Source: Escherichia coli
GTDB taxonomy: Bacteria > Pseudomonadota > Gammaproteobacteria > Enterobacterales > Enterobacteriaceae
DNA: 64,000 bases
Assembly: GCF_036507355.1 (NCBI RefSeq)
Contig: NZ_AP027877.1
Direction: 5' to 3' (one strand)
In this document: piece after piece, positions 2,844-20,134 of the stretch
How the letters are laid out: every line of letters starts with the position of its first letter
How positions within the stretch are numbered: the first letter of the stretch is position 1
The notes under the pieces: model-generated
What the model was told of the DNA's origin: nothing
Seen by the model: only the letters and a program-made list of their open reading frames with translations
The model's database searches: none
Translations under genes and position numbers: made by a program

Positions 2844-3601
2844 TTATGGCAATGGGTTATTGGCCCGACGCGCCAGCCACTCTTTAATTTGCTGGCGATG
2901 CAGGCTAACGGAACGACCTACGACAACGACGATAAGTAGCGCACCGGAAAGGGCGCTGGACACCTGATTTGGCACTCCTGCCATTTGCAAACCTTGTTGC
3001 AAATATCCCACTAATAAAACCGCAATGGCGGTGCCGATAATGGAACCGGAACCACCATAAATATTGGCACCGCCAAGCACCACGGCGGTGATGGCGGGCA
3101 TCAGAAACGACGCACCGAGATCGGAACGTGCTGAACCAAAATACGACACCAGCAGCACAGCGGCGACCGCAGACGCCAGCCCCGTCATGGCATAGAGCGC
3201 ACATAAGGTACGGTTAACTGGAATCGCGCTATAAAGCGCCACGCGCGGGCTTTGCCCAATCAAAAACACGTTACGTCCGGCATGGGTTTTATGCAGCCAG
3301 AGCCAGAAAACGAGGAGACATATCAGGAAGATAATCAGCGGAACGGGGAGCCCCAACACATCCAGGTTAGCGAAATCTGTAAACGCCATCGGGAATCCAC
3401 CAATACCTTCGTACCCCGTCGCTCCGACCATCCCGGAAAGCAGCAGGGCGCTTCCGGCAAACAGATACAGCGTGCCAAGCGTAATCACCAGCGGGTTAAC
3501 TTTGGTATAGATAATTAATCCGGCGTTGATCAGCCCGCACAATGCGCCGAGCAGTAAGGTCAGGAGAATCGCCAGCGGCATCGGCACACCACTTTGAAAC
3601 A
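2844..3601 (-). pseudogene. lsrD: lsrD 3' fragment (C-terminal ~250 codons of the AI-2 ABC permease), cut off from its 5' end by the transposon
   Basis: ORF 2844..3587 is a polytopic permease C-terminus. Together with 9242..9481 it sums to 993 nt (330 codons plus stop) once the 5-bp duplication is counted once. Confidence 0.85.
3597..3601. repeat. 5-bp target-site duplication AAACA (left copy)
   Basis: Identical AAACA immediately outside both terminal inverted repeats (3597-3601 and 9242-9246). Confidence 0.8.
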
Positions 3602-3639
3602 GGGGGAACCGCAGAATTCGGAAAAAATCGTACGCTAAG
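3602..3639. repeat. left 38-bp terminal inverted repeat of the transposon
   Basis: GGGGGAACCGCAGAATTCGGAAAAAATCGTACGCTAAG; 35/38 match to the reverse complement of 9204-9241. Confidence 0.85.
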
Positions 3640-3790
3640 CTAACGGTGTTCTCGTGACAGCTCTTTGACTAGGCTTTCTAAGGCCATTCTGATAGCCCTG
3701 ACTTCCTGAAAAGCCATGGCTAAAATTTGTGCGGCTAAAAGGGATAACCGATGGTAAAGTAAGTTATCCCTGTCGAGATACTGAAAAGCG

Positions 3791-5368
3791 TTATCCTCGT
3801 TTTTCCCAAAACTGTTTTGCCAGTTCGCTCAGAGCGCTAGTTAACTGAGCGACAGATTTCGCACTTTGCAAATTATTCTGCCCGGTCTGTACATTGGTAT
3901 CAGCAGCATCGCGTATATTGATAATACTGCGGTTTATGTCTTCACTTACTGCTCCCTGCTGCTCGACCGCAGTCGCTATTTGCGCGTTCATGTCGGTAAT
4001 TTCGTTAACGCGTTGGCCAATTCCATCAAGAGCTGTAGCTGCTTCCTCTGCGTGAGCTACACTCGTGTGCGCTTGCCGACTACTTTGCTCCATGACTGTA
4101 ACAGCGGATTGCGCTCGCTCTTGTAGAGCGCTGATCATGCTTTGAATATCCGTTGTCGATTGCTGTGTGCGAGCAGCAAGACTGCGAACCTCATCGGCGA
4201 CAACAGCAAAACCACGCCCCTGCTCACCAGCACGCGCGGCCTCAATTGCTGCGTTGAGTGCCAACAAATTCGTTTGCTCGGCGATCCCTCGTATAACGTC
4301 AAGAACTTTTGATATCTCGTTACTTTGACCTTCAAGCTCATGAATAACCTGAGTGGCTTGCCTAATTTCACCTTCAAGGGCAGTGATTGACTGGCTTGTG
4401 TGGGCTACCAGACGCTGGCCAGATGCCGTCTCAGTGTCTGCTCTTCCGGCCGCATCTGCAGCATGCTGTGCATTGCTCGCAACCTCTTGAATGCTTGCCA
4501 CCATTTGGTTTACTGCCGTTGCTATTTGATCTGTCTCTGCCTGCTGCTCAACTGTAAGTACATTGCTTGACTCAATATCCTTTAGTAGGCCTCGGGTGTG
4601 TTCGCTAAGCCGATTTGATGCATCACCTATGCGACCTACTATGGCGCCTGTTTCAGCTTGCATCATTCGTAAAGCAAACTCTATTTGGCCAAACTCATCG
4701 GTGCGCCCAGTGTAGAGGGATTGACTTAATGGGTTATTGGAAATATTCTTGGCTCTTTCAACCAGTCTTCCAAGAGGAGAGAGAATAGCCAAAACACTAA
4801 CAGAGCTTAAGCTTCCTGACATTAAAGTGGCTAACAATAAGCTGCTTATTGATGTATCAGTAAGCATGCCGGCAGCCATTGCGCTTGATATAATACTACC
4901 CCATATGAGCAAGAGTATTTTCACGGAAAAGCTAGCAGCCAATTTCGGCCTCGCGGCCTTCCCGCTTCTCAATTGAGCATATAATTTTTCCGCAGCCAAA
5001 ACCTGCTCAGGTTCAGGCTTGGTCCTTACAGACTGGTATTCAACAATCGAACCATTCTTAGCTATTGGCGTTACATAAGCACTTACCCAATAGTGGTCGC
5101 CATTTTTACAGCGATTTTTTACTAGCCCCATCCATGAGCGGCCAGATTTTAATGTACTCCACATATGCTCAAATGCAGCAGGCGGCATATCTGGGTGTCT
5201 TACGATGTTGTGAGGCTGGCCTAATAGTTCTTCCTCAGTGAAACCACTGATTTTAATGAAGTCAGGATTAACGTACGTGATATGGCTTTGAGGGGAGGTA
5301 GTCGAAAGAATATTGGCATCTTTTGGGAGTTCTAAGTTTCGACCCGTCACTGGTAAATTCTGGCGCAT
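3791..5368 (-). CDS. methyl-accepting chemotaxis protein with N-terminal PAS domain (525 aa), transposon cargo
   Basis: PAS-like N-terminus ([10 protein letters not shown]...[12 protein letters not shown]), hydrophobic segment, conserved MCP signalling core ([38 protein letters not shown]). Confidence 0.8.
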
Positions 5369-5677
5369 AAGAACCTCAAGGGTTGGCTGTTTTATTTTAT
5401 TGTTTTCGGCATTAAGCCCAATTTCTTGAGCGTTACGATAAAGCTAGCATGGAAACGATAGGTGCAAGCAAGTTAAGGGTTGCATCGCGCATGTCAATCT
5501 AGGCTATACCCTAACTTGATGTCAGGCAGGGCCGCGCCGCTTCGTCAGAATAGAGTCTGCTTTCCCATTTTTTGACACATGCCCGCGAAGGTTATAGATT
5601 TCAGCCTGACAGAAATGGGCTTTGAGGCACAACGGAACAGAAAGTGCACTTAAGCCGCCTTCAACCAAGGAGACATC
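5369..5677. promoter_or_regulatory. putative res (resolution) site and divergent promoter region between chemoreceptor gene and tnpR
   Basis: Intergenic position typical of res in Tn21/Tn1721-type elements; inverted repeats TGTCAGGC / GCCTGACA near 5520 and 5605. Subsites not mapped. Confidence 0.4.
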
Positions 5678-6238
5678 GTGCAGGGGCACCGCATCGGCTA
5701 CGTCCGGGTCAGCAGCTTTGACCAGAACCCGGAACGCCAGCTGGAACAAACCCAGGTGAGCAAGGTGTTCACCGACAAGGCATCGGGCAAGGACACCCAG
5801 CGCCCCCAGCTCGAAGCGCTGCTGAGCTTCGTCCGCGAAGGCGATACAGTGGTGGTGCACAGCATGGATCGGCTGGCCCGCAACCTCGATGACCTGCGTC
5901 GCTTGGTACAGAAGCTGACTCAGCGCGGCGTGCGCATCGAGTTCCTGAAGGAGGGCCTGGTGTTCACTGGCGAGGACTCGCCGATGGCCAACCTGATGCT
6001 GTCGGTGATGGGGGCCTTCGCTGAGTTCGAGCGCGCCCTGATCCGCGAGCGGCAGCGTGAGGGCATCGCCTTGGCCAAGCAGCGTGGCGCGTACCGGGGC
6101 CGCAAGAAAGCCCTGTCCGATGAGCAGGCTGCTACCCTGCGGCAGCGAGCGACGGCCGGCGAGCCCAAGGCGCAGCTTGCCCGCGAGTTCAACATCAGCC
6201 GGGAAACCCTCTACCAGTACCTCCGCACGGACGACTGA
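5678..6238 (+). CDS. tnpR: serine recombinase, Tn3-family resolvase TnpR (186 aa)
   Basis: Resolvase N-terminal catalytic motif (GYVRVSSFDQNPERQ), C-terminal HTH; close to Tn21/Tn1721 TnpR. Confidence 0.9.
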   Translation: MQGHRIGYVRVSSFDQNPERQLEQTQVSKVFTDKASGKDTQRPQLEALLSFVREGDTVVVHSMDRLARNLDDLRRLVQKLTQRGVRIEFLKEGLVFTGEDSPMANLMLSVMGAFAEFERALIRERQREGIALAKQRGAYRGRKKALSDEQAATLRQRATAGEPKAQLAREFNISRETLYQYLRTDD

Positions 6239-6241
6239 CAC

Positions 6242-9208
6242 ATGCCGCGTCGCTTGATCCTCTCGGCCACGGAGCGGGACACCCTGCTTGCGCTGCCGGA
6301 AAGCCAGGATGACCTGATCCGCTACTACACCTTCAACGACTCCGACCTGTCGCTGATCCGCCAGCGACGCGGCGACGCCAACCGCCTCGGCTTCGCCGTG
6401 CAGCTCTGCCTGCTGCGCTACCCCGGTTACGCGCTGGGAACCGACAGCGAGCTGCCCGAGCCGGTCATCCTGTGGGTGGCGAAGCAAGTCCAGGCCGAGC
6501 CGGCGAGCTGGGCAAAGTACGGCGAGCGCGACGTGACCCGTCGCGAGCATGCCCAGGAACTGCGCACCTACCTGCAACTGGCCCCGTTCGGCCTGTCCGA
6601 CTTCCGCGCCCTGGTGCGCGAGCTAACCGAGCTGGCCCAGCAGACCGACAAAGGCTTGCTGCTGGCCGGTCAGGCCCTGGAGAGCCTACGGCAGAAACGA
6701 CGCATCCTGCCGGCGCTGAGCGTGATTGACCGGGCCTGCTCGGAAGCCATTGCGCGAGCCAATCGGCGGGTCTACCGCGCCCTGGTCGAACCACTCACGG
6801 ACTCGCATCGGGCCAAGCTGGACGAGCTGTTGAAGCTCAAGGCCGGCAGCAGCATCACCTGGTTGACCTGGCTGCGCCAGGCACCGCTGAAACCCAACTC
6901 TCGGCACATGCTGGAACACATCGAGCGGCTGAAGACATTTCAGTTGGTGGACTTGCCCGAAGGCCTGGGCCGGCACATCCACCAGAACCGCCTGCTCAAG
7001 CTGGCCCGCGAGGGTGGGCAGATGACGCCCAAAGACCTCGGTAAGTTCGAGCCGCAGCGCCGCTACGCGACCCTGGCCGCCGTGGTGCTGGAGAGCACCG
7101 CGACCGTGATCGATGAGCTGGTCGATCTGCATGACCGCATCCTGGTCAAGCTGTTCAGCGGCGCGAAGCACAAGCATCAGCAGCAGTTCCAGAAGCAGGG
7201 CAAGGCGATCAACGACAAGGTGCGCCTGTACTCCAGGATCGGCCAGGCGCTGCTGGAAGCGAAGGAAAGCGGCAGCGACCCCTATGCCGCCATCGAGGCG
7301 GTGATTCCCTGGGACGAGTTCACCGAGAGCGTCAGCGAGGCCGAGCTGCTGGCCCGGCCGGAAGGCTTCGACCACCTGCACCTGGTCGGCGAGAACTTCG
7401 CCACCCTGCGCCGTTACACGCCGGCCTTGCTGGAGGTGCTGGAACTGCGCGCCGCGCCGGCCGCGCAAGGCGTGCTGGCAGCCGTGCAGACCCTGCGTGA
7501 GATGAACGCCGACAACCTGCGCAAGGTGCCGGCCGATGCACCCACGGCCTTCATCAAGCCGCGCTGGAAGCCGCTGGTGATCACCCCGGAAGGCCTCGAC
7601 CGGAAATTCTACGAAATCTGCGCCCTGTCCGAGCTGAAGAACGCCCTGCGCTCCGGCGACATCTGGGTCAAGGGCTCGCGGCAGTTCCGCGACTTCGACG
7701 ACTACCTGCTGCCGGCCGAGAAGTTCGCCGCACTCAAGCGCGAGCAGGCCCTGCCCCTGGCGATCAACCCGAACAGCGACCAGTACCTGGAAGAGCGTTT
7801 GCAGCTGCTGGACGAGCAGTTGGCCACCGTCACCCGCCTGGCCAAGGACAACGAGCTGCCCGATGCCATCCTCACCGAGTCAGGGCTGAAAATCACCCCG
7901 CTGGATGCGGCGGTGCCGGATCGGGCGCAGGCGCTGATCGACCAAACCAGCCAGTTACTGCCGCGCATCAAGATCACCGAACTGCTGATGGACGTGGACG
8001 ACTGGACGGGCTTCAGCCGCCACTTCACCCACTTGAAGGACGGGGCCGAGGCCAAAGACAGGACGTTGCTGCTGTCCGCAATCCTCGGTGATGCGATCAA
8101 CCTCGGGCTGACCAAGATGGCCGAGTCGAGCCCCGGCCTGACCTACGCCAAGCTGTCCTGGCTGCAAGCCTGGCACATCCGCGACGAAACCTATTCGGCG
8201 GCCTTGGCCGAGCTGGTCAACCACCAGTATCGCCACGCCTTTGCCGCCCACTGGGGCGACGGCACGACCTCATCCTCCGATGGCCAGCGCTTCCGCGCGG
8301 GTGGCCGGGGCGAGAGCACCGGGCACGTCAACCCGAAGTACGGTAGCGAGCCGGGACGGCTGTTCTATACCCATATCTCCGACCAGTACGCGCCGTTCAG
8401 CACCCGCGTGGTGAATGTCGGCGTCCGCGATTCCACCTATGTGCTCGACGGCCTGCTGTACCACGAGTCCGACCTGCGGATCGAGGAGCACTACACCGAC
8501 ACGGCCGGCTTCACCGATCACGTCTTTGCCCTGATGCACCTGCTAGGCTTCCGCTTCGCGCCGCGCATCCGCGACCTCGGCGAAACCAAGCTGTACGTGC
8601 CGCAGGGCGTGCAAGCCTACCCGACGTTGCGCCCGCTGATCGGCGGCACCCTGAACATCAAGCACGTGCGTGCCCACTGGGACGACATCCTGCGCCTGGC
8701 CAGCTCGATCAAGCAGGGCACCGTCACCGCCTCGCTGATGCTGCGCAAGCTCGGCAGCTACCCGCGCCAGAACGGACTGGCCGTGGCCCTGCGCGAGCTG
8801 GGCCGGATCGAGCGCACGCTGTTCATCCTGGACTGGCTGCAAAGTGTTGAACTGCGCCGCCGCGTGCATGCCGGCCTGAACAAAGGTGAGGCGCGCAACT
8901 CGCTGGCCAGGGCGGTGTTCTTCAACCGCCTTGGGGAAATCAGGGATCGGAGCTTCGAGCAGCAGCGCTACCGGGCCAGCGGCCTCAACCTGGTGACGGC
9001 GGCTATCGTGCTGTGGAACACGGTGTACCTGGAACGCGCCACCCAGGGGTTGGTCGAGGCCGGCAAGCCGGTGGACGGCGAGCTGCTGCAATTCCTGTCG
9101 CCGCTGGGCTGGGAGCACATCAACCTAACCGGCGATTACGTCTGGCGGCAGAGCCGCAGACTGGAAGACGGGAAGTTTCGGCCCTTACGGATGCCCGGAA
9201 AACCTTAG
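6242..9208 (+). CDS. tnpA: Tn3-family transposase TnpA (988 aa)
   Basis: 988-aa ORF, typical Tn3/Tn21 transposase length; 3' end runs into the right inverted repeat, as is usual in this family. Confidence 0.9.
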
Positions 9209-9241
9209 CGTACGATTTTTTCCGAATTCTGCGGGCTCCCC
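9204..9241. repeat. right 38-bp terminal inverted repeat of the transposon
   Basis: CTTAGCGTACGATTTTTTCCGAATTCTGCGGGCTCCCC; reverse complement matches the Tn1721-type IR. Confidence 0.85.
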
Positions 9242-9246
9242 AAACA
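9242..9246. repeat. 5-bp target-site duplication AAACA (right copy)
   Basis: Same pentamer as 3597-3601, directly abutting the right IR. Confidence 0.8.
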
Positions 9247-9481
9247 GTACGCCCAATGCAATGGCGCAGAGGCCGATGGTCGAACCAAACGAAATATCGA
9301 TCCCGCCACTGACAATCACCATCGTCAGCGGTAGGGCGACAATGCCAATGCAGATAAAGTCACTGGTGCTGAACAGCAACATATTGAGATCTAACATCCG
9401 CGGGTTAATTGCACCAAATGCGACAATCTCAATAACGAGCAGTGCGGCAAGAGCCAGTTCCCAACCGTAGCGAATACGCAT
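9242..9481 (-). pseudogene. lsrD: lsrD 5' fragment (N-terminal ~80 codons)
   Basis: Reverse-strand ORF begins [30 protein letters not shown]..., then reads into the transposon IR. Confidence 0.85.
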
Positions 9482-13318: not shown

Positions 13319-14848
13319 ATGGCTCGACTCTTTACCCCTTCAGAATCAAAGTATTACCTGATGGCGCTGGATGCAGGCACCGGAAGTATTCGGGCTGTGA
13401 TATTCGACCTGGAAGGCAATCAAATAGCAGTGGGACAGGCGGAGTGGCGGCATCTGGCAGTACCGGACGTTCCTGGTTCTATGGAATTTGATCTCAACAA
13501 AAACTGGCAACTGGCGTGTGAGTGTATGCGCCAGGCGCTGCACAACGCCGGCATAGCCCCGGAGTATATCGCTGCCGTTTCGGCATGTTCGATGCGTGAA
13601 GGCATTGTTTTATATAACAATGAAGGAACACCGATCTGGGCCTGCGCCAATGTGGATGCCAGAGCGGCGCGCGAAGTTAGCGAACTTAAAGAACTGCACA
13701 ACAATACCTTTGAAAACGAAGTTTATCGCGCGACCGGACAAACGCTGGCTTTAAGTGCCATCCCCAGATTACTTTGGCTGGCCTATATGCTCAGCGGCGA
13801 ACTTGCGGTGGATCCCTCTAACGCTGGCACCACGGGACTTCTTGATCTAACCATCCGTGACTGGAAACCTGCATTGCTGGATATGGCTGGCCTGCGTGCC
13901 GATATTCTTTCTCCTGTCAAAGAAACCGGCACATTGCTGGGCGTGGTAAGTTCACAAGCGGCGGAACTCTGCGGTCTGAAGGCGGGCACTCCGGTGGTCG
14001 TTGGAGGAGGCGACGTGCAGCTTGGTTGCCTGGGGTTAGGCGTTGTGCGTCCGGCACAAACCGCGGTTCTTGGCGGCACATTCTGGCAGCAAGTTGTAAA
14101 TTTAGCCGCGCCGGTGACAGACCCAGAAATGAACGTGCGCGTTAATCCTCATGTTATTCCTGGCATGGTACAAGCTGAATCTATAAGCTTTTTTACCGGA
14201 CTCACCATGCGCTGGTTCCGCGATGCTTTCTGTGCCGAAGAAAAACTGATTGCCGAACGTTTAGGCATCGACACCTATACGCTGCTGGAAGAGATGGCCA
14301 GTCGGGTGCCGCCTGGGTCGTGGGGCGTAATGCCGATCTTCTCCGACAGAATGCGCTTTAAAACCTGGTATCACGCTGCGCCTTCCTTTATTAACTTGTC
14401 CATTGACCCGGATAAATGTAACAAAGCGACATTGTTCCGTGCGCTGGAAGAAAATGCGGCGATTGTATCAGCGTGTAACTTGCAGCAAATTGCTGATTTC
14501 TCGAATATTCATCCTTCATCGTTAGTCTTTGCAGGCGGAGGTTCAAAAGGGAAATTATGGAGTCAAATTCTCGCTGATGTCTCGGGATTACCCGTCAATA
14601 TTCCGGTAGTCAAAGAAGCCACCGCATTAGGATGTGCCATTGCAGCTGGCGTCGGTGCCGGAATTTTTTCATCAATGGCAGAAAACGGAGAACGCCTGGT
14701 TCGCTGGGAACGGACGCACACACCAGACCCAGAAAAGCATGAACTTTATCAGGATTCACGCGATAAGTGGCAGGCAGTTTATCAGGATCAGCTGGGGCTG
14801 GTTGATCATGGACTGACGACGTCGTTATGGAAAGCGCCTGGGTTATAG
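13319..14848 (+). CDS. lsrK: autoinducer-2 kinase LsrK (FGGY carbohydrate kinase), 509 aa here
   Basis: FGGY-kinase N-terminus ([13 protein letters not shown]), lsrRK context; in-frame stop immediately upstream of the ATG at 13319. Shorter than the ~530 aa I recall for K-12. Confidence 0.85.
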
Positions 14849-15060
14849 TTTCATTGACAGCCACATCATGATGACCGTGGCTGTTAGTTTTTGAGTATAG
14901 TTATTCTTATTTCCCTTCTTTTAGAGCTGGCTTGTTAAATGCCAGCTTGCAGATTCATCGTTCCATCACCAGTACTATATTCAAGGGAAAATTGCTATTT
15001 TTCTTGGTGATGCTGCCAACTTACTGATTTAGTGTATGATGGTGTTTTTGAGGTGCTCCA

Positions 15061-15336
15061 GTGGCTTCTGTTTCTATCAGCTGTCCCTCCTGTTCAGCTA
15101 CTGACGGGGTGGTGCGTAACGGCAAAAGCACCGCCGGACATCAGCGCTATCTCTGCTCTCACTGCCGTAAAACATGGCAACTGCAGTTCACTTACACCGC
15201 TTCTCAACCCGGTACGCACCAGAAAATCATTGATATGGCCATGAATGGCGTTGGATGCCGGGCAACAGCCCGCATTATGGGCGTTGGCCTCAACACGATT
15301 TTACGTCACTTAAAAAACTCAGGCCGCAGTCGGTAA
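15061..15336 (+). CDS. insA: IS1 InsA (91 aa)
   Basis: [43 protein letters not shown]... zinc-finger/HTH InsA. Confidence 0.95.
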
Positions 15337-15758
15337 CCTCGCGCATACAGCCGGGCAGTGACGTCATCGTCTGCGCGGAAATGGACGAACAGTGGGGCTA
15401 TGTCGGGGCTAAATCGCGCCAGCGCTGGCTGTTTTACGCGTATGACAGGCTCCGGAAGACGGTTGTTGCGCACGTATTCGGTGAACGCACGATGGCGACG
15501 CTGGGGCGTCTTATGAGCCTGCTGTCACCCTTTGACGTGGTGATATGGATGACGGATGGCTGGCCGCTGTATGAATCCCGCCTGAAGGGAAAGCTGCACG
15601 TAATCAGCAAGCGATATACGCAGCGAATTGAGCGGCATAACCTGAATCTGAGGCAGCACCTGGCACGGCTGGGACGGAAGTCGCTGTCGTTCTCAAAATC
15701 GGTGGAGCTGCATGACAAAGTCATCGGGCATTATCTGAACATAAAACACTATCAATAA
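15255..15758 (+). CDS. insB: IS1 InsB reading frame (167 aa; the transposase InsAB' is made by -1 frameshift at the A-run near 15310)
   Basis: Canonical InsB sequence; TTAAAAAAC slippery run in the insA/insB overlap. Confidence 0.9.
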
Positions 15759-15773
15759 GTTGGAGTCATTACC

Positions 15774-17755
15774 GGAATTTCCTCGGAACGGGCGAAGCTT
15801 TCCGCTATATCTATATCGGTGATGCTGGCGATGGTGAACTTAATGTCTCGAGTGAAGGCAAAGTAGATTCGGGAATTATCACTGCGGGGATGAAAGAAAC
15901 AGGCACAGGCAACATTACTGTTAAGGATAAGAACTCCGTTATCACTAATCTCGGAACTAATCTTGGTTATGACGGCCACGGCAAAATGAATATCAGTAAT
16001 GAGGGGCTTGTTGTCAGCAACGGAGGAAGCTCTCTCGGTTATGGAGAAACCGGCGTCGGGAAGGTTAGCATCACCACGGGGGGGATATGGGAGGTCAATA
16101 AGAATGTCTATACCACCATTGGTGTTGCGGGCGTCGGAAACCTCAATATTAGCGATGGCGGTAAGTTCGTATCGCAAAATATTACTTTTTTGGGCGATAA
16201 AGCAAGCGGTATCGGCACTCTGAACCTGATGGATGCGACATCATCGTTCGATACTGTGGGTATCAATGTCGGTAATTTTGGTAGCGGTATCGTAAATGTC
16301 AGTAATGGTGCCACCCTTAATTCAACGGGCTATGGATTTATCGGAGGAAATACCTCCGGTAAGGGGATAGTTAATATTTCAACGGATAGTCTCTGGAATT
16401 TAAAGACATCATCTACTAACGCCCAATTGCTACAGGTCGGTGTATTAGGCACGGGTGAACTGAATATTACCACCGGAGGTATAGTTAAAGCGCGTGATAC
16501 ACAGATAGCTCTCAATGACAAAAGTAAGGGCGACGTGAGGGTGGATGGGCAGAACTCTCTTCTTGAAACATTCAATATGTACGTAGGGACATCTGGTACG
16601 GGTACGTTAACCCTGACGAATAGCGGCACGCTGAATGTCGAAGGTGGAGAAGTTTACTTAGGTGTTTTTGAACCTGCTGTAGGAACGCTAAACATTGGTG
16701 CAGCTCACGGTGAGGCGGCGGCAGATGCCGGGTATATAACCAACGCGACGAAAGTAGAGTTTGGTTCTGGCGAAGGTGTTTTTGTCTTTAATCATACTAA
16801 TAACAGTGATGCCGGCTACCAGGTCGATATGCTGATTACAGGTGACGATAAAGACGGAAAAGTGATCCATGATGCAGGCCATACGGTGTTCAATGCAGGG
16901 AATACTTATAGCGGTAAAACGCTGGTCAATGACGGCATCCTGACCATTGCGTCTCATACGGCAGATGGGGTAACGGGCATGGGTTCGAGTGAAGTAACCA
17001 TTGCAAGCCCCGGTACGCTCGACATTCTCGCATCAACGAACAGTGCAGGAGATTACACGCTGACCAATGCGCTCAAAGGCGATGGCTTGATGCGAGTGCA
17101 GCTGTCATCCTCCGACAAGATGTTTGGCTTTACCCATGCAACAGGGACTGAATTCGCCGGTGTTGCCCAAGTGAAAGACAGTACCTTCACTCTGGAACGC
17201 GACAACACCGCTGCGCTTACTCACGCGATGTTGCAGTCTGACAGTGAAAATACCACATCGGTAAAAGTTGGAGAGCAATCCATTGGTGGACTGGCCATGA
17301 ATGGAGGTACCCTCATTTTCGATATCCAGGTCTTTCAGTGGTTGATTGGCGCAACGGATGGCCATGCAAAAAACTTCTCCGTATTTATTCAGGCTGGCGG
17401 CAGTTATCGACTCACGCCATTTTACGACATCATTTCAGCATTTCCGGTATTGGGTGGCGCGGGAATACACATCAGCGATCTCAAACTGGCAATGGGGCTT
17501 AACGCATCCAAAGGCAAAAAAACGGCAATCGATAAAATTTATCCGCGACATTTTTTGGCGACAGCAAAGGTGCTGAGATTCCCGGAAGTGCAGATGCATG
17601 AAATCCTGAGTGACTTTGCCAGAATGATTCCGGCAGCACTGGATAACGTGAAGACTTCATTACCGACAGATTTTCCAGAGAACGTGGTGACGGCAGTTGA
17701 AACCAATGTGTTGAGGTTGCACGGTCGGTTAAGCCGAGAATACGGTATTAAGTAA
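15774..17755 (+). pseudogene. chimeric remnant: AIDA-like autotransporter passenger fragment (ydeK/yneO-like, 5' end removed by IS1, no beta-barrel domain) fused in frame to the 3' end of hipA
   Basis: N-terminal ~480 codons are Gly/Thr/Asn/Ser-rich beta-helix repeats; the last ~142 codons are the HipA C-terminus. Confidence 0.7.
17327..17755 (+). pseudogene. hipA: hipA 3' fragment (C-terminal ~142 codons of the HipA kinase toxin, including the catalytic loop); hipB and the hipA 5' part are absent
   Basis: QVFQWLIGATDGHAKNFSVFIQAGGSYRLTPFYDIISAFPVLGG...RLHGRLSREYGIK matches the HipA C-terminus; the N-terminal domain and ATP-binding region are not upstream. Confidence 0.75.
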
Positions 17756-18008
17756 GAGTAAGATATGGGGTTTGGTCGTTGTTAATGAGCAGGACAATCA
17801 TGACCGCCAACGACTAGATTCTTCCTTGGTTTATGTTGGTGCGCATAATGTATATTATGTTAAATCACCTACTGTGGTAAATAAGTTCATATGACACTCC
17901 CACTAACTGATAAATCAATACGTTAGGATTTCTGATCTCCCTCTCGTTTCTTGCATTAGGTACAGAGTACATTCTCTTCATATCCATGATAATTTTGAGG
18001 TAAATATT

Positions 18009-18720
18009 GTGTATTCACTAAAGCAGTTGGTTATCTCAGGCCGTAAAAGGCGATGGATCCTGATGGACTTGGAAACCTCTCTGCCGTTGCTGTATCCCCT
18101 TAGGTACCATATTGACCATTTGGCTTTCCGCTCATTGTCCACACAGTCAGCTTCACTTCAATCTGTGAAGTTTTTTTACGAATTCTGGAGGCAAAAGTAT
18201 GGTGTCTCGTTTTGCTACAGCTTCTATTCATCTGACCACAATCCAGACATTGCTGTCGGTGAAATGCCCGCATTTTGGATGTATCTAGAAAATGGCCACA
18301 ACGTCCAGTCAAATGTGTTGTCTTTAACGAGAGTCACAAAAGCCAATAGCTTAACTCATACAGTTAGAGTTCGTGCTGTGATCCATTTCATTTCTTTTTT
18401 GATTAACACCTACATATCACCTGCATACCGGGATGACTCTCCCAAAGCATTATCACTTTTGGCTTCGCGTTTACACACCCGTTTACAGCTTTGCCGGGAG
18501 AATTATCGAACGCTTACATCAAACAAATTTTCGCAACATAGTCACAGCAGCCAAGGATTTCAGAGTTTGTCTGGGGCAATGGTGCTCAGCCTGTATGGAA
18601 TAATAACCCCCTCTTCTGCCCAAAAGCATAACCCGCTAAATCCTTTCCCTTCCGGGCATCTTCAGTTCCGCAATTTTTTGATTATTCGTCTGTTGTTAAA
18701 TTATGGTTTACGAACAGGTG
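18009..18720 (+). pseudogene. tyrosine recombinase / phage-integrase-family gene, N-terminal fragment truncated by IS1
   Basis: AT-rich ORF with an integrase-like N-terminal motif (LQSVKFFYEFW) and the start of a box-I-like motif (LLLNYGLRTGG) just before the IS1 boundary. Weak assignment, no search run. Confidence 0.35.
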
Positions 18721-18775
18721 GGTGATGCTGCCAACTTACTGATTTAGTGTATGATGGTGTTTTTGAGGTGCTCCA

Positions 18776-19051
18776 GTGGCTTCTGTTTCTATCAGCTGTC
18801 CCTCCTGTTCAGCTACTGACGGGGTGGTGCGTAACGGCAAAAGCACCGCCGGACATCAGCGCTATCTCTGCTCTCACTGCCGTAAAACATGGCAACTGCA
18901 GTTCACTTACACCGCTTCTCAACCCGGTACGCACCAGAAAATCATTGATATGGTCATGAATGGCGTTGGATGCCGGGCAACAGCCCGCATTATGGGCGTT
19001 GGCCTCAACACGATTTTACGTCACTTAAAAAACTCAGGCCGCAGTCGGTAA
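18776..19051 (+). CDS. insA: IS1 InsA (91 aa)
   Basis: Identical to copy-1 InsA except one residue (MVMNG vs MAMNG). Confidence 0.95.
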
Positions 19052-19473
19052 CCTCGCGCATACAGCCGGGCAGTGACGTCATCGTCTGCGCGGAAATGGA
19101 CGAACAGTGGGGCTATGTCGGGGCTAAATCGCGCCAGCGCTGGCTGTTTTACGCGTATGACAGGCTCCGGAAGACGGTTGTTGCGCACGTATTCGGTGAA
19201 CGCACGATGGCGACGCTGGGGCATCTTATGAGCCTGCTGTCACCCTTTGACGTGGTGATATGGATGACGGATGGCTGGCCGCTGTATGAATCCCGCCTGA
19301 AGGGAAAGCTGCACGTAATCAGCAAGCGATATACGCAGCGAATTGAGCGGCATAACCTGAATCTGAGGCAGCACCTGGCACGGCTGGGACGGAAGTCGCT
19401 GTCGTTCTCAAAATCGGTGGAGCTGCATGACAAAGTCATCGGGCATTATCTGAACATAAAACACTATCAATAA
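18970..19473 (+). CDS. insB: IS1 InsB reading frame (167 aa)
   Basis: Identical to copy-1 InsB except one residue (LGHLMS vs LGRLMS). Confidence 0.9.
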
Positions 19474-19488
19474 GTTGGAGTCATTACC

Positions 19489-20134
19489 TGCTTGCCATAG
19501 CACCGTTGCCAACGCAGCTGTCGCACTGGGTGCGACTCGGGTAATTTATCCGGAAAACCAGAAACAGGTTTTATTGCCTGTCACGAATAATGATCCTGCC
19601 AGTGTCTATCTCATTCAGTCATGGATAGAAAATGCAGGTGACCAAAAAGACACCCAGTTTGTCATTACCCCACCGCTTTTTTCCATGCAAGGTAAAAAAG
19701 AGAATACGCTGCGGATAATCAACGCCACTAATCATCAGTTACCAGGCGACCGTGAAAGCCTGTTCTGGGTGAATGTTAAAGCTATTCCTGCTATGGAAAA
19801 AGACCAGAAGAATGAGAATACATTACAGCTGGCAATTATTAGCCGCATAAAAATGTTTTATCGCCCCACGAACCTGGCAATGGCACCTGAAGAAGCGCAT
19901 GCAATGCTTCGGTTTCGTCGCAGCGGTAGCAAACTCACTCTTATTAATCCAACGCCCTACTTCATTACCGTAACAAATATGAAAGCAGGAAATAGCAATC
20001 TCCCAAACACCATGGTGCCGCCAAAAGGTGAAGTGTCGGTGGATATCCCGCATGCTGCCACCGGGGATATCAGTTTTCAGACGATCAATGATTACGGCGC
20101 ATTAACTCCGCGTATTAAGGCAACCATGCAGTAA
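19489..20134 (+). pseudogene. periplasmic fimbrial chaperone (PapD/FimC family), 5' end and signal-peptide region removed by IS1
   Basis: Reading frame opens directly at the IS1 end with a mature chaperone N-terminus (..RVIYPENQKQ..) and immunoglobulin-like chaperone domains; no own start codon or promoter. Confidence 0.75.

Follow-up and report, generated by a model that had tools for sequence, protein, structure and literature searches.

A complete Tn1722 in lsrD of Escherichia coli, with an Aer-type chemoreceptor gene as its cargo

The element and the interrupted lsr operon

The window, that is, the whole 64,000-nucleotide stretch of Escherichia coli DNA analysed here, contains an lsr operon (lsrACDBFG, minus strand) interrupted within lsrD by a complete transposon of 5,640 bp (3602..9241). 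The element is bounded by two 38 bp inverted repeats, IRL (GGGGGAACCGCAGAATTCGGAAAAAATCGTACGCTAAG; 3602..3639, plus strand) and IRR (9204..9241, plus strand), which are 92% complementary. It is flanked by a 5 bp target site duplication, AAACA, with its left copy at 3597..3601 and its right copy at 9242-9246. The element encodes the chemoreceptor gene mcp (3791..5368, minus strand), the serine resolvase gene tnpR (5678..6238, plus strand) and the transposase gene tnpA (6242..9208, plus strand). The 186 amino acid product of tnpR is annotated in RefSeq as a recombinase family protein (WP_001161490.1), and its resolvase-family matches all fall under the equivalog cut-offs. The 988 amino acid product of tnpA matches the Tn3-family transposase model NCBIfam NF033527 with 1289 bits, where the cut-off is 500. 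The repeats, the duplication and the transposase match thus bear out the preliminary description of this DNA, made from its letters alone, which had proposed a transposon interrupting lsrD; with only tnpR and tnpA beside it, mcp is also, as that description had it, the sole gene of the element outside the transposition functions.

By its inverted repeats, target duplication and sequence identity, the element is Tn1722, the minor transposon and self-sufficient 5.6 kb core of the tetracycline-resistance transposon Tn1721. The published Tn1722/Tn1721 element (Allmeier et al. 1992, Gene 111:11; GenBank X61367) has the same 38 bp repeats with a variant IRL and a 5 bp target site duplication, and the IRL of Tn1721 is reported to differ from the IRR by mutations (PMC5736529). 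The gene order mcp-res-tnpR-tnpA and the length of about 5.6 kb are common to the published element and the one in the window, whereas Tn1721 additionally carries the tet region that the window element lacks, leaving the minor transposon alone. The comparison with Tn1721 orfI that the preliminary description had called for was made against plasmid and chromosomal copies of Tn1721 rather than the reference X61367, and it yielded identity: in plasmids and chromosomes, the identical 5,640 bp are directly followed by tetR(A)-tet(A), which makes Tn1721, and in plasmid NZ_CP025329.1 and several chromosomes, these genes are followed in turn by a truncated tnpA and a third inverted repeat. Copies identical to it at 100% over the full length are found on E. 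coli chromosomes as well as on plasmids of E. coli, Salmonella, Klebsiella, Enterobacter and Raoultella, and hundreds of plasmid and chromosomal copies differ from the window element by one SNP or not at all. Of the 5,426 complete E. coli genomes, 336 have a place at which 80% or more of the element is covered. The receptor gene is accordingly known cargo of Tn1722, not a new kind of cargo, and is annotated in RefSeq; a chemotaxis-like gene of Tn1721 was described in 1992, as relayed in later papers (Allmeier et al., via PMC5756416 and PMC5736529).

Reconstruction of the empty site defines the two parts of the broken gene. The 5' fragment of lsrD (9242..9481, minus strand) comprises codons 1-80 and reads on into IRR to a stop, forming an open reading frame of 98 amino acids (9185..9481), and the 3' fragment lies at 2844..3601 on the same strand. 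Beyond it follow lsrB (1810-2832), lsrF (908-1783) and lsrG (594-884), all on the minus strand. When the element and one copy of AAACA are removed in silico, an intact lsrD of 330 amino acids is restored, and 8,137 bp of the restored sequence are colinear, with no gaps, with an E. coli genome that lacks the interruption. The same insertion site in lsrD was found in none of the 5,426 complete RefSeq E. coli genomes. The host would lose the LsrD permease and, therefore, Lsr-dependent AI-2 uptake, and a polar effect of the insertion on lsrB, lsrF and lsrG is probable.

Architecture and predicted function of the mcp product

The mcp reading frame occupies exactly 3791..5368 on the minus strand and encodes 525 amino acids from an ATG start codon, with a GAGG Shine-Dalgarno sequence 8 nt 5' of it; reading through the frame revealed no frameshifts and no internal stops. 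A PAS sensor, a membrane segment and a signalling core had been read from the sequence by eye, with the proviso that a domain search might find neither a PAS nor an MCP domain, or that disabling frameshifts had been missed. The frame is intact, and Pfam identifies PAS_3 (residues 31-114, 4e-17), HAMP (PF00672, residues 194-239, 7.5e-7) and MCPsignal (PF00015, residues 325-486, 7e-44). Taken together with alignment to Aer and hydropathy analysis, these matches delineate an N-cap and PAS domain (residues 7-133; 4970..5350), a membrane hairpin (residues about 142-200; 4769..4945), a HAMP domain (residues about 194-245; 4634..4789) and the signalling domain (3911..4396), all on the minus strand. 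The hairpin consists of two adjacent membrane helices, for which Kyte-Doolittle values exceed 1.2 in windows centred at residues 150-162 and 181-195, and no periplasmic domain lies between them. The conserved hairpin-tip motif of MCPs falls at residues 376-387, and the CheA/CheW-binding tip is canonical. The RefSeq name of the product (WP_001323889.1) is PAS domain-containing methyl-accepting chemotaxis protein; the window carries the variant with K207 instead of R207, owing to a single SNP at window position 4749. Against the NCBIfam equivalogs CtpM, Aer2, Tar and Tsr, every score was far under the cut-off. An assignment as CtpM, the malate receptor of Pseudomonas aeruginosa, was rejected (267.9 bits, where the cut-off is 900), and the match to that profile is confined to the HAMP and signalling parts.

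The alignments place mcp as an Aer-type PAS-HAMP-MCP transducer whose sensor is an FAD-PAS domain predicted to bind FAD. E. coli Aer matches the product with an E-value of 3e-76, and residues 7-133 of the two proteins are 54% identical with no gaps. All nine FAD-pocket residues of Aer that were checked (H53, R57, H58, D60, W70, N85, Y93, W94 and R115) are present in mcp at the same numbers; roles of R115, H53 and N85 in the Aer PAS domain have been described (PMC9668731). Among PDB entries, the product is closest to full-length Aer (2e-65) and to 8DIK (2.6e-42), the Aer PAS domain solved with FAD, and homologues at 60-70% identity bear the name aerotaxis receptor. E. coli Aer (b3072) and mcp are alike in having an N-cap and FAD-type PAS domain, a membrane hairpin, a HAMP domain and a kinase-control domain from which the C-terminal pentapeptide is absent. 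The two differ in that overall identity is only 33%, that gaps are required in the signalling domain, and that aer is a core-genome gene whereas mcp is transposon-borne.

A closer parallel is found in Vibrio cholerae, in which AerB (VC0512) is likewise a horizontally acquired Aer-type receptor. A V. cholerae homologue (P0083) is 66% identical to the mcp product and fits the AerB numbering with a constant offset of +15, so that AerB would be about 66% identical to mcp if P0083 is AerB. Oxygen-dependent energy taxis by AerB, in which the response to oxygen is negative, depends on the FAD-pocket residues R, H and W and on a glycine at the tip, and mcp has the same residues; AerB also binds CheW, as a two-hybrid assay in E. 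coli showed. The homes of the two genes differ, aerB residing on the VSP-II genomic island under VerA/Zur control and mcp on a Tn3-family transposon. By homology to Aer and AerB, we infer that mcp is an energy-taxis or aerotaxis transducer, in which a PAS-bound flavin would report the redox state of the respiratory chain and the signal would pass through HAMP to control of CheA and thus to energy taxis or aerotaxis.

By its length, the signalling domain falls into the 40-heptad class and not into the 36-heptad class of E. coli receptors. Residues 193-519 and the corresponding part of Pseudomonas putida PcaY (6S18) have equal spans of 327 residues, whereas the match to Tsr aligns 310 residues of mcp with 282 of Tsr, an excess of 28 residues, or four heptads, that puts mcp outside the E. 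coli 36-heptad class (Tsr, Tar, Aer) in the same-length test. The 40-heptad class is typical of receptors of Pseudomonas, Vibrio and Aeromonas. Receptors of 40 and of 36 heptads are reported not to co-assemble in one array (Herrera Seitz et al. 2014, via PMC5907407). Because the signalling domain is four heptads longer, integration of mcp into E. coli arrays is doubtful, and the proposal that the receptor could plug into the host Che pathway becomes uncertain on this account. In E. coli, the protein would probably form separate complexes or perturb the array rather than join it. The mismatch between the 40- and 36-heptad classes counts against normal mcp function in E. coli.

It is a serious contender, rated somewhat short of even chances, that, in E. 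coli, the receptor merely hitchhikes, silent or of no use; it would be functional only in hosts with 40-heptad arrays, such as Pseudomonas, Aeromonas and Vibrio, and be carried along in Enterobacteriaceae by the transposition module and by selection for tet(A). The reported separation of the length classes speaks for it, as does the near-identity of all enterobacterial copies, which therefore offer no sign of selection in these hosts. N-terminally truncated copies are also very common (a cluster of 373 amino acid proteins, P0081, with 1,067 member sequences), so that mcp is dispensable on resistance plasmids. The canonical tip and CheW-binding surface of mcp point the other way, and so does the interaction of V. 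cholerae AerB with a CheW in the two-hybrid assay in E. coli. Moreover, overexpression of the Tn1721 MCP reportedly interferes with E. coli chemotaxis, according to a secondary account (Allmeier 1992, via PMC5756416), from which it would follow that the protein engages the pathway.

Control region, read-out and origin of the cargo

Between mcp and tnpR lies a divergent control region that includes res (5369..5677). Alignment of diverged relatives reveals three conserved res blocks, TGTCAA...GCTATACCCTAAC...GTCAG (about 5492-5526), GTCAGAATA (about 5544-5552) and TTGACA...GGTTATAGATTTC..CCTGACA (about 5572-5612). Promoter-like sites were found on the plus strand at 5572-5600 and on the minus strand at 5525-5496. 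The latter, the predicted mcp promoter, is a weak consensus match that overlaps conserved res site I; it was discarded as firm evidence for TnpR-regulated expression of mcp, its hexamers not being conserved in relatives.

Base composition switches at res, from 44-51% GC on its left to 61-68% on its right. The 40-heptad class of mcp, along with a GC content far below that of the transposition genes, suggests that mcp was captured as a module from a Pseudomonas-like lineage, the junction with the transposition genes being at res. Comparison with an 89%-identical copy gives a dN/dS of 0.05, a value that points to strong purifying selection on mcp. Relatives of mcp are passengers on other Tn3-family backbones, including one (locus L005) whose TnpA is only 21% identical to that of the window by BLASTP.

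On its distal side, mcp is followed 20 nt past the stop codon by a hairpin with an 8-10 bp stem, a 12 nt loop and a UUUU tract (3736..3771, minus strand; folding energy of -12.2 kcal/mol), possibly a weak intrinsic terminator. Since this hairpin is absent from 89%-identical relatives, the 3' untranslated regions of which are unrelated, we stop short of calling it a proven terminator. A scan for consensus terminators between the mcp stop codon and IRL gave no match, nor did an Rfam scan of the whole window at the gathering thresholds. The receptor gene and the lsr operon do share a strand, as stated in the preliminary description, and read-out from mcp into the lsrD 3' fragment and lsrB is possible from this arrangement. 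In its stronger form, transcription of mcp would cross IRL and drive the lsrD 3' fragment together with lsrB, lsrF and lsrG, uncoupling LsrB from control by LsrR and AI-2. The distance of only about 190 nt from the mcp stop codon to lsrD sequence, the lack of a strong consensus terminator in the scan and the retention by lsrB of its own start codon, 12 nt past lsrD, are compatible with such read-out, but the hairpin and UUUU tract stand in its path, and we consider it rather unlikely.

Position of the insertion relative to the replication terminus

The chromosome dimer resolution site dif was located at 17838..17865 on the plus strand by an exact match to the 28 bp dif sequence; none of 100 shuffles gave such a match, and the site adjoins hipA at the same position in other genomes. 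In the window, dif is 8.6 kb from IRR, and on an unrearranged genome it is 13.5 kb from the insertion site. A TerC-like site is found 4.9 kb from the lsrD site, beyond lsrD, on the map of locus L010. The insertion site thus falls between the TerC-like site and dif.

Among 16 other independent chromosomal insertions in E. coli genomes, each counted as independent by its own target duplication, seven are no more than 25 kb away from dif (binomial P 1.4e-10). The sample comprised the 21 chromosomal records among the best 60 matches, out of 743 chromosomal places, and the distances above 25 kb derive from K-12 map positions. The tnpA end points towards dif in seven of the eight dif-proximal copies, an orientation bias that is not significant.

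Targeting of the terminus of replication has been reported for Tn1721 (Tang et al. 2024, PMC11417375). In that study, three of three chromosomal mini-Tn1721 insertions obtained in E. coli in the laboratory were near terC, and interaction of the QLxxLR motif of the transposase with DnaN was put forward as the targeting mechanism. Tn917 (Garsin 2004; Shi 2009), like mini-Tn1721 (PMC11417375), is a Tn3-family element that prefers zones of replication termination, and the TnpA of the window shares the QLxxLR motif in the form QLCLLR (residues 54-59; nt 6401-6418). Where the published E. coli evidence for mini-Tn1721 consists of three laboratory insertions, the present survey covers natural isolates and both sides of dif.

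Most likely, then, the location in lsrD is explained by terminus preference and not by quorum sensing: Tn1722 would sit in lsr because lsr adjoins the replication terminus that Tn1721 prefers, having reached it through a transposase-DnaN interaction that favours the zone between TerC and dif. The idea of a delivery into a quorum-sensing locus, in the sense of a functional link, does not hold up against this position and the seven of 16 insertions within 25 kb of dif. Selection of the insertion for inactivating AI-2 uptake, beyond target preference and, for instance, as an escape from AI-2-dependent regulation, appears highly improbable. It would account for a second lesion at the lsr locus, an in-frame 63 bp deletion in lsrK, for the presence of the element in lsrK in other strains and for the lsrK pseudogene in FORC_042. 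However, unrelated neighbours are struck equally often, namely the tam|lsrG interval, an autotransporter gene, the spacer between lsrK and the autotransporter gene, the ydeT usher gene, yddA and an island adjacent to dif, and experimental insertions obtained without such selection are near terC too. Terminus targeting of Tn1721 would itself account for the repeated hits in the lsr locus.

We are confident of the account as a whole, in which a simple insertion of Tn1722 in lsrD, with an Aer-type 40-heptad receptor as cargo, owes its site to terminus preference. A more far-reaching reading seems improbable, namely that the Aer-like receptor works and is selected for as a passenger, kept under strong purifying selection and swapped among at least three unrelated Tn3-family backbones, and that landing between TerC and dif couples gain of the receptor with loss of AI-2 uptake. 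If it were true, the receptor could alter the redox- or oxygen-seeking behaviour of any motile recipient, and the preference of Tn1722/Tn1721 for the stretch between TerC and dif would make the gain of the receptor and the loss of AI-2 uptake recur in livestock-associated E. coli as a coupled genotype. On the account that we favour, natural E. coli genomes lend independent support to the terminus targeting of Tn1721, so far based on three laboratory insertions. The cargo is now precisely described as an Aer-type FAD-PAS receptor of the 40-heptad class, under purifying selection and found on different Tn3-family backbones, and what a transposon gains from an energy-taxis receptor thereby becomes a well-posed experimental question.

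Tn1722 in lsrD

The element disrupting lsrD is a 5,640-bp unit (3602-9241) that ends in 38-bp inverted repeats and is flanked by the 5-bp direct repeat AAACA. It encodes a 186-aa serine recombinase (5678-6238, plus strand), a 988-aa Tn3-family transposase (6242-9208, plus strand; 1289 bits versus a cut-off of 500) and a chemoreceptor, mcp, an uninterrupted ORF of 525 codons with an ATG start (3791..5368, minus strand), exactly where the preliminary description had placed it. Because the remaining ORFs within the element overlap these genes and appear spurious, the receptor is the sole cargo, as that description had held. Of the surrounding host genes, the minus strand carries lsrG, lsrF, lsrB, lsrD', 'lsrD, lsrC and lsrA, with the element between the two lsrD fragments, and the plus strand carries lsrR and lsrK. 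In silico deletion of the element and one AAACA copy yields a 330-aa lsrD, and the restored sequence aligns without gaps to E. coli PCP06022 over 8,137 bp (98.5% identity); the insertion thus stems from a true and resolved transposition into an E. coli chromosome. This lsrD junction is absent from all complete RefSeq E. coli genomes.

Hundreds of Enterobacterales plasmid and chromosome records match the 5,640 bp at 100%, under the RefSeq labels "Tn3-like element TnAs1 family transposase", "PAS domain-containing methyl-accepting chemotaxis protein" and "recombinase", and among 5,426 complete E. coli genomes, 336 contain the element over at least 80% of its length. On plasmid NZ_CP025329.1 and several chromosomes, the unit abuts tetR(A)-tet(A), with a truncated tnpA and a third inverted repeat beyond, and the whole is Tn1721. 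Tn1722 is known in the literature as the basic or "minor" transposon of Tn1721, and its chemotaxis-like gene goes back to Allmeier et al. 1992 (cited in PMC5756416 and PMC5736529). Comparison with Tn1721 orfI, proposed at the outset, accordingly identifies a long-known transposon with a known receptor gene, nothing new in kind. Relative to the common copy, Tn1722 in the window has a single SNP, at 4749, so that residue 207, at the beginning of the HAMP domain, is K and not R (K207); the copy in E. coli 23CRST010, at the tam-lsrG junction, is identical to that of the window. Plasmids NZ_CP100967.1 and NZ_CP178692.1 reach an equal maximal bit score, which suggests the K207 variant there too.

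The passenger receptor and its relatives

The preliminary description of a 525-aa receptor with a PAS sensor, a membrane segment and a signalling core agrees with both Pfam and hydropathy analysis. The domain search it called for detects a PAS fold (residues 31-114, 4e-17), HAMP (194-239, 7.5e-7) and the MCP signalling domain (325-486, 7e-44). Among NCBIfam models, the PAS "sensory box" exceeds its own cut-off, and the product falls far under every cut-off for the receptor equivalogs CtpM, Aer2, Tar and Tsr. Two adjacent hydrophobic segments in residues 142-200 point to a membrane hairpin into which a periplasmic domain would not fit. The C-terminus (…QFWEKRG) lacks an NWETF-type pentapeptide. 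Many of the 98-99% identical homologues (among P0003-P0031) are recorded at 544 or 552 aa, that is, N-terminally extended; the window's ORF is limited to 525 aa by a stop codon upstream of it.

Full-length similarity to E. coli K-12 Aer (BLASTP, E = 3e-76) indicates that the product is an Aer homologue. Residues 7-133 align with Aer at 54% identity, without gaps and with numbering unchanged, and H53, R57, H58, D60, W70, N85, Y93, W94 and R115 are all shared; R115, H53 and N85 are named as flavin contacts in the paper on the Aer PAS-FAD crystal structure 8DIK (PMC9668731), which matches the product with E = 2.6e-42. The top PDB match is full-length Aer, and homologues 60-70% identical from Pseudomonas and relatives carry the name aerotaxis receptor. 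A V. cholerae protein, P0083, is 66% identical to the product and agrees with AerB (VC0512) in numbering, R61, H62 and W74 corresponding at a constant offset of +15. AerB binds CheW and mediates oxygen-dependent energy taxis, these pocket residues and the tip glycine being required (PMC8248653).

From HAMP to the C-terminus, the product matches P. putida PcaY over an equal span of 327 residues, whereas the match with Tsr takes 310 residues of the product against 282 of Tsr, an excess of 28, or four heptads. Tsr is a 36H (36-heptad) receptor under the Alexander-Zhulin scheme, which places the mcp receptor in the 40H class. This length scheme is also used in PMC5907407, which cites Herrera Seitz et al. 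2014 to the effect that 36H and 40H receptors reportedly do not form one joint array. The mismatch weakens the earlier proposal that the mobile receptor plugs into the host Che pathway.

GC content is 44-51% over 3601-5600 versus 61-68% over tnpR-tnpA, and the change coincides with the conserved res blocks, which is what is expected if recombination at res swapped the passenger side. The same mcp-res-tnpR layout occurs in metagenome contigs (L004, L005, L006) encoding an 89% identical receptor, P0040, with an IRL end similar to that of Tn1722 and tnpR 83-86% identical to the window's; in L005, tnpR is 83% identical, yet tnpA just 21%. A 77% identical receptor, P0050, from P. aeruginosa (relatives at this level come from assemblies L007-L009) is the passenger of another Tn3-family element (L007), whose terminal repeats measure 117 nt and which also encodes a 309-aa recombinase and an RHH/PIN pair; its tnpA is 31% identical. 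Between mcp and P0040, dN is 0.060 and dS 1.18, and the ratio of 0.05 shows that mcp was maintained as a protein during its association with transposons. On sequence evidence, the receptor types as Aer-like, with a PAS domain predicted to bind FAD, of the 40H class, under purifying selection and recurrent on Tn3-family backbones.

Consequences for the lsr locus

LsrD is cut after codon 80, and its 5' part enters IRR, with a stop 18 codons on. Judging from the known Lsr system, Lsr-dependent AI-2 import should be lost without the permease. The genes lsrB, lsrF and lsrG now have 5.6 kb of foreign DNA upstream of them. A hairpin (-12.2 kcal/mol) followed by UUUU lies 20 nt past the mcp stop codon (3771-3736, minus strand); it was not called by a consensus terminator scan and is not conserved in relatives. 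Transcription from mcp may therefore continue into lsrD' and lsrB but could be partly blocked.

The locus bears a second lesion, an in-frame 63-bp deletion in lsrK (13319-14848; junction about 13775-13782) between 8-bp direct repeats, which leaves a product of 509 aa versus 530 by removing residues 156-176. The 12 best E. coli matches listed all lack the deletion, each genome aligning as two segments that span 364 bp. If the deletion inactivates the kinase, LsrR would not be released and the lsr promoter would be silent anyway.

Insertion near the replication terminus

The 28-bp dif sequence has an exact match at 17838-17865. In related genomes, uxaB and yneE flank a TerC-like core, GGATGTTGTAACTAA, just outside the window's left end. 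On the PCP06022 map, 4.9 kb separate the lsrD site from the TerC-like core, and 13.5 kb from dif.

Other lesions lie close to dif in the window. Two IS1 copies (15006-15773 and 18721-19489) are accompanied by deletions. An ECSE_1600-family autotransporter gene lacks its 5' part, and the remainder is in frame with the 3' end of hipA, forming a 621-aa chimeric ORF (15890..17755); hipB and most of hipA are lost, and dif is kept just downstream. About 0.8 kb (17936-18720) has no counterpart in PCP06022 and holds a 238-aa ORF (18009..18725) that enters the second IS1, past which a fimbrial chaperone gene is truncated at its 5' end.

We surveyed all chromosomal records within the best 60 full-length matches, a non-exhaustive sample, merging identical sites. 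Besides the window's, there are 16 independent insertion events, every one with its own 5-bp duplication. Seven lie less than 25 kb from dif: in lsrK (13P460A, ~8 kb on the PCP06022 map), at the 23CRST010 junction (16.6 kb), in the ECSE_1600 autotransporter gene (FORC_042, 1.8 kb), in the lsrK-autotransporter spacer (ST540, Tn1721; 7.6 kb), in a dif-adjacent island (T16R = YY76-1, 10.5 kb), in the ydeT usher gene (19SZHZ869Rt, 2.7 kb) and in yddA (EC42405, Tn1721; ~22 kb on the PCP06022 map). Five more fall in the wider terminus region, namely two at different positions in yddE and one each in trg, ydcF and a Qin-like prophage, and four lie outside it.

In E. coli 63-2 and T28R (L019, L021; 18914-31687), it is a full Tn1721, with its Aer-like receptor gene, that interrupts trg, a native chemoreceptor gene; the duplication is TATCT. 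Tn1722 and Tn1721 entered yddE (PhzF family), beside narI, independently in EC21Z-063 (L026) and S171-1 (L028), with differing positions, orientations and duplications; yddE may be a secondary hot spot. The ~25-kb island adjoining dif in T16R and YY76-1 (L020, L023; ~10500-36200) encodes two site-specific integrases and a type I restriction-modification system, and small HTH genes occur in it in duplicate. Of the eight dif-proximal copies (window, L001, L012, L013, L018, L020, L022, L027), which lie to either side of dif, seven have their tnpA/IRR end pointing toward it, which is not significant at so small an n.

Against a uniform expectation (50 kb in 4.8 Mb), seven of 16 events within 25 kb of dif has P = 1.4e-10, and four of 16 inside the 18.4-kb TerC-dif interval has P = 3.8e-7. 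Tn1721 TnpA binds the beta-clamp DnaN via QLxxLR (Q54, L55, R59), and 3/3 chromosomal mini-Tn1721 insertions lay within a stretch of ~25 kb in which clockwise forks come to an end, a pattern shared with Tn917, although the authors themselves urge caution at n = 3 (Tang et al. 2024, PMC11417375). The window's TnpA shares the motif, as QLCLLR at residues 54-59. Since neighbouring insertions strike genes of unrelated function, position and not quorum sensing explains the presence of Tn1722 in lsr; of the earlier view that the receptor was delivered into a quorum-sensing locus, the locus stands, and the functional link that the wording suggests is unlikely. The survey offers no new principle and lends natural-isolate support to an already published property of Tn1721.
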